From NCBI RefSeq assembly GCF_044324875.1, contig NZ_CP172185.1: a stretch of DNA of 64,000 bases. One strand, written 5' to 3'. The position numbers were made by a program. Shown here in pieces: positions 37,601-43,600 of this stretch (the first letter of the stretch is position 1; each line of letters opens with the position of its first letter). This DNA comes from Escherichia coli (lineage in GTDB: Bacteria; Pseudomonadota; Gammaproteobacteria; Enterobacterales; Enterobacteriaceae).

Positions 37601-40600
37601 TACAGGTAAATTAGCTGAGCATGCATCCATCATTTGTCGCTGCGATGCCAGACTTCCGGATGCTCATATGTTGTTTTACTTTTGTCAGCATAAATGCTGC
37701 GTCGGGACTGGTGAATGGAGATAAGCCATTTTATTATCGACGTCAGAGAACATACTCACAATGTCGGTATGTTTCTGAAATTAAGGGTAAGTTTTGCGCT
37801 GATTACAGTATGCGAAGGAGATCTGGCACAATGAATCCCGCTTATATGCAATCCCCCCATTTCCCGGCAGATTTAACATACAGATTATTTCCTCGTAAGC
37901 TTGCGTATCTCATTGACGACTTATATGAAAGTACCCAACTTCCGCTGGATCTCATTTTTAATACTGTACTGGCAACGCTCTCACTCTCCTGTCAGTCATT
38001 GGTTGACGTTGTTCATCCTCACACCAACATGCCGGAACCCTGCTCACTTTATCTGTTGACAATCGCAGAGCCAGGCGCGGGAAAAACAACGATAAACAGA
38101 CTGGTGATGAACCCCTGTTACGACTTTGCCGATCGACTCATTCAACAATACGAAGAGAGAAACAAAGATTATAAAACTGAACTACAGATCTGGAATACCC
38201 GACAGAAAGCTCTTTCTGCCAGTTTAAGAAAGGCTATTAACCGGGGGTATCCGGGAGAACAGGAAGAAGAGGCGCTGCGTAATCACGAAAGAAATAAACC
38301 GACACGTCCGGTTCGACCGAATTTTATCTATGAAGATGTTTCACTTAAAGCGCTTGTGGAAGGACTCAACGAGCATCCGGAGGCGGGAGTTATTTCTGAT
38401 GAAGCGGTAACTTTTTTCAGAAGCTATCTGAAAAATAGTCCTGGTCTGTTGAATAAAGCATGGAGTGGACAACCGTTTGATTTTGGACGGGCTGACGAGA
38501 AATATCATATCACTCCACGCCTGACATTTTCGCTAATGTCCCAACCGGATGTTTTTACGGCTTATATAAATAAAAATGATGTACTGGCCAGGGGAAGCGG
38601 ATTTCTTTCCCGGTTTCTGTTCAGTCAGGTTGTAAGTTCTTCCTGGATACGTGATTATACGAGAGGTGAGTTCAGAACAATACCAACCCTGGAGAATTTT
38701 CATAAAAAGATTAACGGATTTCTGTTAAGCCATAACATTAATTCCCCCGGCATGAGCACCGAAAGGAAGACATTAAAACTTGCGAAGAAAGCGTTGGGGG
38801 AGTGGCAGGAAAACCAGAGTAAGATTGAAAGCAAAGCGCTTGCAGGAGGGGAGTGGGAACACATCAGAGATATTGTTCTGAAAGCAGGTTCTAATATACT
38901 GAGGATAGCGGGTTTATTCACCTTCTATGGCAATAAAGATGCTGAGGAAATTGAATCAATTGCGCTTTTTAACGCCATGCATCTCATGGACTGGTATCTG
39001 GAGGAGGCAAGCGCAATATTTTATCCCATGTCTGAGCGACGCCAGTTTGAGCAGGATGCCTGTGAACTGTATGCATGGATTATGACCCGAATCAGGCAGA
39101 ATAACTGGTGTGCTATCAGGAAAACAGATATTGAAAGATATGGTCCCAATCGACTGAGAAGAGCAGAAAAGCTTACACCTGTACTCAATCAGTTAATTGC
39201 TCAGAATTATTTCTGTATCATCAAAATGCGCTCGCATCAGGCACTTTATGTTTCTGTTCGTAACAATAATGGTTACCTCCTTCCTTTCGGCACAATGTCT
39301 TACGAACCGTTTGATGTTGTACCCTCCTTGTATAGTCATAATGCGAAAATATATCCCGTTAATATTCCACCGGAATTAATCCAGTCATTTGCGTTACCTT
39401 TTTCAGCCTATAACTTATTCTGAAATAAACCAACACAGATGAAACGAAAAAAAACAACATTCATTCGAAGGTTGGTGGTAAGGAGTTTGCATATCCTGCA
39501 TCTGTGCAAATATTCACCAGTTATGGGGCGCGAACGAAAATTTCTCTGAAAAAATCGCTACGGTAGCAACAGTAGCAGCACATGCACCATGTCTGTTATT
39601 TGATTTTGTTTTCATAATGACCTGTTGTCAAAGCTGATTGAATACAGGAGTGTGCGCACTGGTGGAAGAGTGGCTTTCGTTTTTGGTTATTCGAAAGAAA
39701 ATCGAAATATTGTTTTTAACATAGCTGAAGCTAATCATATAACCATATTTTTTGAGTTTTTATATATAACTTTGTTTGATTCTTGTCGTAATGAGTGCTG
39801 GCGTATATGACGATGTCGCTCTCTTTCTGAATAACGAAAGGTTATCAGTCTTTTACTGACAAGAGATGCTGTTCAGGTTTCAATGGGAGATTGAAGAAAA
39901 ACGATTTGATATTTTCCGTGAGAGAATGTCTTGTCAGGTTCATATTCATAACGGATAATTTCTTATTTTCACTCATCAGACATGGATAATTTTAATTTAG
40001 GTTTATTACTATAATTAGTATCTGTTCCTTTATTTTTATCCATCTATCCCTTTATTTTTCATCTATCTATCCTTTTATTATTAGTATCTGTATTTTTATT
40101 ATTGGCATCTGTCTATTTATTTTTATCATTCTCTCCTCTCTGTCTTTACTCTCATTGCTCTTACTCTCATTCTGTTATTTCTACTCGTGTTATCGTGTTC
40201 ACTCTATCACTCTATCACTCTATCACTCTATCACTCTATCCATCTCTCAATCATAACGATTGTCACTCATATGATACTCAGCCATGTTATTTTCTACTGC
40301 TCTGCTGAGCTTATCTGTCTGTTCTCATCTTCAGTGAAACAGCACCTGATTTTACTCTTATCCATCATGAACTGTCTTTGTTCAACGATGATGGTATGTC
40401 TGATATGTGTTAACCATTTTGATGGGTATCGTTGATTATCCGATGGTTAAGCTTCGATAAGGTTATCCATAGAACAGTGTGGGGTAAGCAACATGATCCC
40501 TGATGATATTTGTTCCGTGTTGTCTTGTTGTTTAAGCGACAGGAAATATGTCAATGGCATGTTTTATTCTGCTGCCGTGAGCCATGCATGTTCTGAAGAA

Positions 40601-43600
40601 CAGATTGAATGAGCGCATGTGAGTTTATTACGTTGGCCTTGTACACGTTTTTTTTAGAACCACTGAGAGCAAGTTTGTAGTTTATGATGCTATTGGTCGT
40701 AATATGTTTCTTGAACTTTTGATCGTGGGTTTTTATCTCGTATTTTTCAGCATTTCTCGGTGTTGTATTGCGTCGATATTTTCTTTATTCCCGTTAATAT
40801 CATCTCGTCAGTGTCCATTCCTTTCATCACAATGCGTATCGTTAATAATCTGTTGTATCCATCCGCCTACAGCATGCCTGATAAATACCGTCTGTCAGTT
40901 ATTACCGTTTTAGATCTGATTATGAGCGAAGGTATTCATTCGCTGACAGAACTTAAAACGTCATTAACTTACAGGAGTTATCAGCATGCCTCAGTCTTAC
41001 ACACCAGACTGGTTTTTTACCGCCTTACTTGACCATCACATCGATCAAATGATGGCTCGCTATTCCTGTCTGCGGGCCTTACGGATGGATTTCTTCTACA
41101 GGAAAGAGACGCCTGATTTCTTACAACCTGATCACCGCTGGCTTGAATTGCAGTTGCGTATGCTGCTGGACCAGGTTGAACGGTTTGAAAATATGGTTGG
41201 TTTCTTCTGGGTGATTGAATGGACGGCTGATCATGGTTTTCATGCGCATGTGGTTTTCTGGATCGATCGTCAGAGGGTGAAAAAAATATATCCCTTTGCG
41301 GAGCGGATAACCGAATGCTGGCGGGCTATTACGTATAACTGTGGTTCGGCGCACCGCTGTACATACCAGCCGCATTATGCATACAACATCAACATTCCCG
41401 TGCGCCACAACGATCCTGAAAGCATCGATAATATTCGCGGTGCCCTGCATTATCTGGCGAAAGAAGAGCAAAAAGACGGACTGTGTGCATACGGCTGCAG
41501 CGAAGTGCCTGAACGTCCTGCTGCAGGGCGACCACGCAAGCTTCACGTCTGAAGCTTAAACCCTGAACCTCCGCACCTGGAAACAAGCCATCGGTAAAAA
41601 CTTACCGCATTGCTTAATGATGTGAACCGAAGTCAACGGAGTTCATTCACCCTGAATGTTCTTTCCTGATATTCCCGCTCAGCGTCGGTTCTTCACCTGT
41701 TCCATCAACCTCATCCGCAGCCTGTAACCCGTCAGCCCATCCATCCCCGGGCAGGACGCGTTGTGGGCTGCGCATAACGGAGCATATCCTATGAATGCTT
41801 TCCCTTATTTCGACGACAGCATGGCCCCCTTCTGGCCTTCGTATCAGAACAAAGTTATTGGCGTTCTTGACCGTGCGCTGCGTGAGCAGTCCGGCTCCCG
41901 GATACGTCGTATCCTGCTTCGTCTGCCGTGGGAACCCGATAACACCTTCAGCAGCCGCAGGACCTGGTTCGGTATGGCCTTTATTGAAACCGTCAGCGAC
42001 CTGATGAATGCAACCCCCGGACGTGACCTCTGCTGGCTCCTGACACGTCATCCTGAAAAGCCGGAATACCACGTGGTGCTGTGCGTCAGGCAGGAGTATT
42101 TCGACGGCCCTGAACTGGATCGGCTGATTCTGGATGCCTGGAGCAACGTGCTGGGCTTCGCCTCACCGGGGGAAGCGGCACCGTATCAGAAGCAGATTAC
42201 CCGGGATGTGCTGCTGGATCCCCGTTCACCGGACTGCGAGGAACTGTTCAGAGACCTGATCTGGGCGTTCAGTGATTTCGCACGTGATCGCCGGGGGGTA
42301 TACGATCCGGAAGCCCGTCACCTCGCCGGTAATCCCTGGTATCCCGGATCAGCAGGACGGCGCTGAACATCATGTTCAGCCGTTCCCCCGAACTTACACA
42401 TCCTTCCATTTCACCGAGGATATTCCGACCATGTTGAGCACAACAACATCCCACGACAGCGTATGGTTGCGTGACGACGATCCCCTGATCGACATGATTT
42501 TCATCACCAGTTTCACCGGCATGACCGACAAATGGTTCTACCAGCTGATGAGCGAAGGCAGGTTCCCGAAGCCCATCAAACTGGGCCGCAGCAGCCGCTG
42601 GTACAGAAGCGAAGTGGAGCAGTGGATGCAGCAGCGCATCGAAGCATCACGGGGAGAAGCATGAAAGGTATTGTGATACCGGTTCGCTGGCAATGTGCAA
42701 ACTGCCGGCGCTGGTATTGTGGTAATCCCCCCTGCCCCTGGTGCTGGCGACCTGCTGCACCGTCTGTCATTCCTCATCCTTCGCTGTAACAGGCATCGTA
42801 CCGGTGCCGGCGTGCTTTCCTGTGCACCGGCACCGGTTCAGAAACATGCAAAGAGAGCAAATCGTGCAGATAACCGAAACCGTACTTTCAGAGCCGGTGG
42901 AAATCCGGCGTTTTATTCAGCAGGCGGTGGATCACTGGCCGCGTCTGCTGGCCGTTCAGTTCACACTTCATTCAACAGGAGGAAATTGTGACGGGAGGCA
43001 GATTCATGCGTTTTACTGGGCATTTTACCGACAGCTGAATCAGCGAAGCCATACCGGATATCCGTTACTGCCGGTGGTGCTACGCTGGCTGCGGGAAACG
43101 ACAGAAAGCACAGACAGCACCGGGATACGCTGTCTGTTGCTGATCAGCCAGGATCTCATTTGCCCACCAGGATCCGGAATGACGTCTGATGACGCTGATT
43201 CGCACCTTGTGGCGTTACTGCAGCAGGCCGGCACCACACTCACGGCAGAAGGGCACTGTACGGTGGTATGCTGTTACAGGGTGGTGCGTGCAGCCACACC
43301 TGAAGGCGCTGAGTCACTCACGGCATTCAGAAACGCGTGCCTTTCGTTGGCCAGGCCCGTGATGGCCGGCATCATCCGCTAAGCAACATGATGTATCCCG
43401 GTTCAGCCGCTGAAACCGGCTCCTTCAGCAGCAGACCGGTATGAGGTTGTTCCCCCGGACATTCCTTCGTAGAATCCGTGCTGTGTTCGTACTTCCGGAG
43501 CCGTCGCCATGAAAATCTGTCTTTACCATACCCTGAATCCTGAAACGATCCCGGGCTATAAAAAGTTTGCGCAGGCCATTGAGGCAGATAATTTCGCGCA

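Follow-up and report, generated by a model that had tools for sequence, protein, structure and literature searches.

Within a 64,000-nucleotide (nt) stretch of the Escherichia coli contig NZ_CP172185.1 (assembly GCF_044324875.1), referred to here as the window, an intergenic gap at 39424-40985 separates an open reading frame (ORF) of the DUF3987/YfjI family (37621-39423) from a YagK/YfjJ-like ORF (40986-41552). We propose, at somewhat less than even confidence, that this gap combines the 3' flank of yfjI with an unannotated region controlling the HUH-nuclease (YfjJ/Gp2-like) operon downstream of it. On the reading that we tentatively favour, which is drawn from sequence comparison, a promoter would be followed by a long untranslated leader whose CU-rich 5' tract acts by composition, most plausibly as a silencer resembling a Rho utilization (rut) site.

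Among 5,426 complete E. coli genomes, part of the gap was present in 1,565, always unannotated, and the only full-length match was in E. coli LH50-c (97% identity). No related E. coli genome has any annotation in the gap. When E. coli loci were aligned together with those found on 100 metagenome contigs (individual loci carry the prefix L below), the gap proved to be a composite. A scan of genome contigs gave only two loci. The left part, from 39424 to ~39850-39976, travels with yfjI, while the DNA from ~39977 rightwards accompanies the Gp2-like gene and not yfjI. This right part opens with an AT-rich motif and a pyrimidine tract, and the upstream neighbours of this motif/tract module include yfjI, IS3, an H-NS paralogue and the chromosomal dsdA. 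In islands linked to dsdA, ~150 nt separate the module from the island/chromosome junction.

Anatomy of the region upstream of the Gp2-like gene

The right part of the gap contains the following features.

39977-40018, plus strand: conserved AT-rich block, with the 26-nt core motif TTAATTTAGGTTTATTACTATAATTA at 39992-40017
40019-40250, plus strand: hypervariable pyrimidine-rich, G-poor tract directly after the motif, 232 nt
40019-40129, plus strand: T-rich imperfect direct repeats with periods of 23 and 21 nt, detected with Tandem Repeats Finder (TRF) and specific to the allele of the window
40200-40239, plus strand: variable-number tandem repeat (VNTR) of five CACTCTAT copies (TRF, 5.2 copies, 100% match)
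40251-40850, plus strand: weakly constrained part of the presumed leader, or spacer, ~600 nt
40872-40989, plus strand: long stable hairpin of 118 nt that pairs the Shine-Dalgarno (SD) sequence AGGAG (40973-40977) and the AUG start codon (40986-40988)
40922-41032, plus strand: small upstream ORF in the hairpin loop, extended by stop loss in the version of the window

The core motif matched once in the window, with 0 matches expected, and across 51 E. coli-type sequence contexts it was invariant except for an exchange between TATAAT and TATTAT. We found it upstream of the Gp2-like gene family in at least six enterobacterial genera, with the consensus TTAATTTnGGTT(A/T)ATTA(A/C)TAT(A/T)ATTA. In E. 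coli, Salmonella, Klebsiella, Enterobacter and Serratia, 150-260 nt separate it, in the same orientation, from homologues that are 50-59% identical at the protein level; in Budvicia it lies ~1 kb upstream of a homologue with 36% protein identity. A perfect -10-like TATAAT is embedded in the core (40010-40015), and TATAAT or TATTAT was present in all E. coli-type variants and in most of the distant relatives. A promoter scan returned no convincing promoter nearer to the gene.

The motif was also altered by mobile elements and slippage in individual loci. In Xenorhabdus bovienii (L121, 2860-2885), an insertion sequence (IS) has entered the motif, and only its 3' half (AATATAATTA) is left before the Gp2-like gene. 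In three loci (L092, L109 and L074), TTA was expanded at the -10-like hexamer and the 3' edge of the motif (TATTATTA, TATTATTATTA and TATTATTATTATTA), which indicates that slippage also changes the motif/tract junction in some lineages. A TATTAC within the motif that recalls CRESS viruses was not conserved in other genera.

A similar arrangement is known upstream of yagK, a paralogue in the CP4-6 island of K-12, where genomic SELEX (systematic evolution of ligands by exponential enrichment) reported in vitro binding of RNA polymerase and H-NS and listed the TATAAT region (TTTAGA-16-TATAAT) as a 'constitutive promoter' (PMC3946193). As at our locus, TATAAT comes after TAGGT..ATTA and before ACTC-type sequence, here with the related TAGGTATTATATAAT. 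The K-12 promoter differs in its -35-like hexamer TTTAGA at 16 nt and its ~270-nt gap; moreover, the 26-nt motif is unmatched in K-12 within five mismatches, and both the pyrimidine tract and the SD hairpin are missing.

The tract that follows the motif has the highest pyrimidine content of the window, with 76.7% C+T (5.4 standard deviations above the 64-kb mean) and 13 G in 232 nt (5.6%), and it holds the two longest G-free runs of the window (60 and 59 nt). The initial annotation had described the plus strand as strongly C/T-rich over the entire 1.5 kb. This bias is real at 40019-40250 and does not extend to the left third of the gap (39424-39976), which is only 49% pyrimidine; the gap as a whole is 56.7% pyrimidine. 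The same annotation recorded the absence of ORFs over 90 amino acids (aa), which is true, as the longest complete ORF inside the gap has 82 aa and another of 90 aa enters the next gene, yet uninformative, as 82% of shuffles of the region likewise lacked one. Placement of the gap between a DUF3987-like and a YfjJ-like gene agreed with both the ORF and the Pfam evidence.

Among 81 loci, we distinguished 45 tract alleles of 63-278 nt. All of them are 74-81% pyrimidine with 2-6% G, and they are unalignable between lineages. The allele of the window is rare, with LH50-c as the only other carrier among the complete genomes. This nearest relative has 11 copies of CACTCTAT within identical flanks, compared to five in the window, and in another lineage CCACCTTCT occurs in one, three, six or seven copies. 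Both are perfect tandem units (8 and 9 nt, respectively) whose copy number varies between near-identical strains, and most tract alleles have no tandem array. The comparison of repeat number across related islands that the initial annotation called for thus confirmed the polymorphism, and the repeat sequences themselves were not conserved between lineages. The four repeats first noted at 40201-40232 are a genuine array, which consists of five perfect copies at 40200-40239, and the runs of tatt/tctat motifs correspond to the two imperfect arrays at 40019-40129.

A preference for C over G was also seen outside E. coli. The short leaders 3' of the motif had C/G ratios of 1.5-2.8 and 56-68% pyrimidine in seven of eight distant relatives, compared to C/G ratios of 0.7-1.1 in their flanks. 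Since so many of the distant leaders share it, the C>G bias appears to be a family property of the sense strand 3' of the motif that is exaggerated in the long-leader subfamily of E. coli.

As RNA, the tract is essentially unstructured, with a minimum free energy (MFE) of -7.4 kcal/mol for 232 nt. Its best 78-nt segment contains 26 C and 3 G, and the density of YC is 0.21 in the tract versus 0.12 across the whole window. The tract thus has the C-rich, G-poor length and the low RNA structure of rut-type sites. No conserved RNA structure was detected by alifold with column-shuffle controls in 35 diverse leaders on either strand (absolute z of at most 2.3), and the only Rfam match, in E-value mode, was a chance-level small nucleolar RNA hit inside the coding region. 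The idea that the tract is a structured element was therefore not borne out by its fold, by the leader alignments or by a covariance search, which matched no relevant family.

The 3' end of the gap, tested separately from the alifold analysis, behaved differently from the tract. The predicted hairpin at 40872-40989 has an MFE of -41.2 kcal/mol (z of -5.1), and none of 200 shuffles folded as well. The last ~130 nt of the gap showed ~94-99% column conservation across 61 distinct leaders, and the hairpin was too invariant for covariation analysis. It was also predicted in locus L002 and is absent from relatives with short leaders. The hairpin is predicted to sequester the SD sequence and the AUG, and its great stability and near invariance indicate that the gap, at least at its 3' end, works as an mRNA leader. 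Together with the conserved promoter-like motif before the tract, this hairpin supports the initial suggestion of a regulatory region.

The loop of the hairpin contains a small upstream ORF, which has 23 codons in most relatives (MSESINSLTELKTSLTFRSHQHA; 13499-13570 in L002) and a TAA stop codon that overlaps the start of the nuclease gene. This arrangement suggests possible translational coupling to the gene. Changes in the ORF between lineages are mostly non-synonymous, which makes a functional peptide doubtful.

Proposed regulation and alternative explanations

Rho loads on C-rich, G-poor, unstructured and untranslated RNA of ~70-80 nt with little sequence specificity, and Rho and H-NS together silence horizontally acquired DNA in E. 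coli. Selection on composition only is the signature expected of a Rho-loading site. We hypothesize that the family-conserved AT-rich motif (39992-40017) serves as a promoter and/or operator, which would probably be weak, activator-dependent or covered by H-NS because it has no -35 element. Transcription would start at ~40022 and give an untranslated leader of ~960 nt, beginning with 60-280 nt that would be CU-rich, G-poor and unstructured, with composition rather than sequence kept. If this tract acts as a Rho-loading (rut-like) site, most transcripts would end before the gene, and those that read through would still be blocked in translation by the 118-nt hairpin over the SD sequence and AUG. 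Slippage in CACTCTAT and CCACCTTCT would change the length of the tract between strains and could tune the strength of silencing.

Known Rho-dependent leaders and rut sites (rho, mgtA, corA and rpoS; lambda tR1) resemble the tract in having more C than G and in being pyrimidine-rich and unstructured over a stretch of at least 60-80 nt, close to where a long leader begins. The tract, which lies 3' of a promoter-like motif and holds no ORF conserved across relatives, may also resemble them in being transcribed but untranslated. They are likewise conserved by composition rather than sequence, and for the tract we propose Rho dependence on this likeness. The tract differs from them in being richer in T than in C, in varying in length from 63 to 278 nt and in carrying VNTRs, which have not been described for rut sites.

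Several observations weigh against this model. The motif has a -10 hexamer and no recognizable -35 or extended -10 TG; the hexamers at 16-18 nt are TAATTT-like and inconsistent across genera, and the promoter scan did not call the motif. With 51% T and 25% C, the tract is less C-rich than classical rut sites, and in the Budvicia relative the motif precedes a 1-kb gap without pyrimidine bias. Selection need not account for all of the constant composition, part of which could stem from a CT-rich seed that slipped and was duplicated. Finally, positions 40251-40850 are 75-80% identical to relatives, whereas the third codon positions of the neighbouring gene reach 84-87%. These ~600 nt evolve at or above the synonymous rate, and much of the 'leader' may be functionless spacer; they also contain many insertions and deletions that are not multiples of three.

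Another possibility is that the tract itself is functionless, slippage-prone low-complexity DNA whose composition is kept only through copying of CT-rich seeds. We consider this unlikely, while giving it some weight. The extreme variability of length and sequence, the several independent VNTRs, the TTA microsatellite that reaches even into the -10 of the motif in some loci and the roughly neutral rate of the adjacent leader all fit such a process. It is harder to reconcile with a G content of 2-6% in all 45 alleles, compared to ~20% G in flanking non-coding DNA that diverges by 20-25%. In addition, no allele has lost the tract, the minimum being 63 nt, and the same C>G bias is present in leaders of other genera that cannot be aligned.

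The initial annotation also raised an origin-like sequence. In this scenario, the motif would be the nick or melting site of the HUH nuclease and the adjacent repeats its binding elements, which with YfjI would support rolling-circle replication or transfer of the excised island. We regard this as rather improbable, though only slightly more so than neutral slippage. In parvoviruses, CRESS viruses and rolling-circle plasmids, the Rep origin is located 5' of rep and pairs a nick site with short tandem repeats. The flanking genes fit, as the gap lies between a helicase-like gene and an HUH-like nuclease gene with an intact E/HxH/YxxK set. Across genera, the motif accompanies the gene in conserved form; it is a quasi-palindrome of TAATT units and is followed by ACTCACTC in many lineages. 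In addition, a gut-passage study of E. coli Nissle anecdotally reported that an integrase gene and a Gp2-family gene had gained copies (bioRxiv 10.1101/364505).

The behaviour of the repeats argues against an origin. Tract sequences and repeat units are wholly different between lineages whose nucleases are 88-93% identical, with only composition kept; repeats that are not conserved where the protein is argue against sequence-specific iterons, and only the motif could be a Rep site. The stem of the motif, centred on TATA, has only 4-7 bp and is all AT. No second copy that could act as a termination site was found in the window or in any of the loci examined, and no viral contig matched the motif. 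In K-12, the yfjI-yfjJ gap is only 150 nt and lacks the motif. Compared to HUH Rep origins (adeno-associated virus and other parvoviruses, iterons of CRESS viruses and geminiviruses, pMV158-type plasmids), the locus shares an AT-rich site and short tandem repeats directly upstream of an HUH-like gene, and it differs in that its repeats are not conserved with the protein and that it apparently has no stable hairpin with a nick sequence. Origins of Staphylococcus aureus pathogenicity islands (SaPIs) and phage-inducible chromosomal islands (PICIs), with iterons flanking an AT-rich region 3' of a primase-helicase gene, are similar in their position directly 3' of a helicase-like gene, in an integrase/AlpA-type island, and in their AT-richness and direct repeats. 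Here, however, the tract is inherited with the nuclease gene rather than the helicase gene and occurs without yfjI beside an H-NS paralogue, IS3 or dsdA, and the repeats are on one side of the AT-rich block only. A more specific version, which we hold to be marginally less probable still, is that the motif is the origin or nick site for a Rep split into nuclease and YfjI on separate polypeptides, and that the very common enterobacterial islands like CP4-57 and CP4-6 use rolling-circle initiation to replicate or transfer after excision. The G-poor tract would then serve as a tunable loading zone or be displaced as the first strand.

The polymorphic repeats could also suggest a contingency (phase-variable) switch, in which repeat number turns the downstream operon on or off. 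Near-identical strains do differ (five versus 11 copies of CACTCTAT; one, three, six or seven of CCACCTTCT), and the perfect 8- and 9-nt units resemble contingency loci and VNTRs of bacterial pathogens. However, the repeats lie 3' of the -10 hexamer, not between -35 and -10, and they are in no conserved ORF; mechanisms based on promoter spacing or frameshifting do not apply, nor does any other known switching mechanism. Most alleles, moreover, have no tandem array, and we consider a switch highly improbable.

A degraded gene, or intrinsically curved DNA bound by H-NS, fits the data least well and is improbable as the main explanation of the tract: the island DNA is AT-rich (66-72% A+T) and thus a typical H-NS target, the homologous yagK promoter has a reported H-NS site (PMC3946193) and some islands carry an H-NS paralogue directly upstream, but a six-frame Pfam scan of the gap revealed no gene remnant, tblastn with neighbouring island proteins no similarity and the leader no ORF conserved across relatives. 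None of these checks pointed to a degraded gene. Neither the predicted curvature of the tract nor its 10-11-bp A-tract phasing exceeded the average of the window, its end-to-end ratio and periodicity being ordinary (of the wedge-model values, only the ranking is meaningful).

The yfjI-linked flank and the island context

The remaining features belong to the yfjI side of the gap and to its flanking genes.

37621-39423, plus strand: YfjI-family (DUF3987) helicase-like gene, 600 codons, forming the left border of the gap
39447-39474, minus strand: intrinsic terminator, with a hairpin at 39455-39474 followed by T8 (39447-39454)
39515-39616, minus strand: unannotated 33-codon ORF (MKTKSNNRHGACAATVATVAIFSEKFSFAPHNW) upstream of the terminator
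40986-41552, plus strand: YagK/YfjJ ('inovirus Gp2')-like gene, 188 codons, with an HUH-nuclease-like product

The left-hand ORF matched Pfam DUF3987 (E-value 1.8e-75) and the phage family PHROG 2373 'DNA helicase' (E-value 2.7e-46), and it is annotated as 'YfjI family protein' in relatives. Convergent with it, the 33-codon ORF and the terminator appear from the sequence to form a small unit that travels with yfjI. The ORF was intact and constant in length in 14 of 15 sequence variants and had no match in the protein collection or in NCBIfam. The terminator hairpin appeared in the minus-strand fold and was kept in 15 variants, with one compensatory double change (AACC/GGTT to AATC/GATT in L083). 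We counted 332 complete E. coli genomes with the DNA of this unit, none of which annotates it. The suggestion of a small RNA locus consequently fails for the pyrimidine tract, and the left end of the gap does hold a small conserved minus-strand unit with a terminator.

The product of the downstream gene gave a confident AlphaFold model (predicted local distance difference test score, 88). Residues E78, H86, H88, Y156 and K159 were nearly invariant among 50 homologues, and this intact E/HxH/YxxK set corresponds to the HUH metal ligands and the YxxK tyrosine pattern. According to the model, the protein is HUH-nuclease-like, with a predicted fold that resembles the nuclease domains of NS1 and Rep. 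Two genes downstream lies a helix-turn-helix gene with an AlpA-family annotation, in keeping with an integrase/AlpA-type island. A study of Pseudomonas islands named Gp2-like and AlpA genes as likely core functions without giving a mechanism, and we found no functional study of YfjJ, YagK or Gp2 in the searchable literature. The antiterminator element of P. aeruginosa AlpA (GGGACG) was also considered and set aside, as both protein and site are unrelated.

The window encodes a second, longer 'inovirus Gp2 family' paralogue (34733-35464, 243 aa; YagK_YfjJ_C match, E-value 8e-37) with weak matches to phage replication-initiation families. It has no 26-nt motif upstream, where the DNA appears to encode a C-terminal fragment of a transposase. 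Further downstream, a UvrD-like helicase gene (43509-46354) is split into overlapping ORFs (43509-44642 and 44639-46354), and it is also annotated as frameshifted in the nearest relative. In other genera (L113-L117 and L123), variable defence-like cargo directly follows the Gp2-like gene, including restriction-modification systems, dynamin-like GTPases, OLD/UvrD (Gabija-like) proteins and SMC/AAA proteins, which suggests that the gene marks the edge of a cargo hotspot. The purine-richest plus-strand stretch of the window (~47080-47440, 31% pyrimidine) is coding, corresponds to the repetitive (EGRMEGR...) C-terminus of an Rpn-family nuclease/transposase-like gene and is not a mirror copy of the pyrimidine tract.

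The module itself was found in varied surroundings. In L005 and L006, a gene for an H-NS-family paralogue (3294-3509) is located directly upstream. A few conjugative plasmids of E. coli carry fragments with the motif, the tract and the first part of the leader; on one of them, pSTEC2018_607-a (L126, 3501-3925), the fragment is cut off by an IS66-family element. For seventeen upstream contexts, the junction seemed to fall no more than ~25 nt from the motif, as at the sharp end of a mobile element. Most of these contexts turned out to be diverged or indel-laden versions of one ancestral flank, and we do not claim a transposon-like end. A role as an attachment (att) arm was rejected, as the motif is internal to the island in other genera. 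A 16-nt direct repeat (39816 and 56311) is attributed to chance, since its second copy falls within a 512-aa ORF, probably a transposase gene, and no similarity extends beyond it. DnaA-box-like TTATCCAT words were not conserved in relatives.

Novelty and meaning for the y-genes

In the searchable literature, we came across no account of the motif, the tract or the hairpin. Promoters, leader attenuators, SD-sequestering hairpins and VNTRs are already known as kinds of feature. What is new is their combination, the linkage to an HUH-nuclease gene family across genera, and a constraint on composition alone that coexists with hypervariable length. In practical terms, the repeats offer a ready marker for strain typing.

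YfjI, YfjJ and YagK have long been "y-genes", located in cryptic islands that are present in a large share of E. coli and also hold defence systems and toxin-antitoxin modules. Should the tract be a Rho-loading site, it would represent a silencer that is maintained by composition while slippage alters its length; should the motif instead be an origin, it would show by what means these islands move or are replicated. With the features described here, the y-genes gain a testable cis-regulatory anatomy, consisting of a cross-genus motif, a composition-constrained hypervariable leader and a translational lock.

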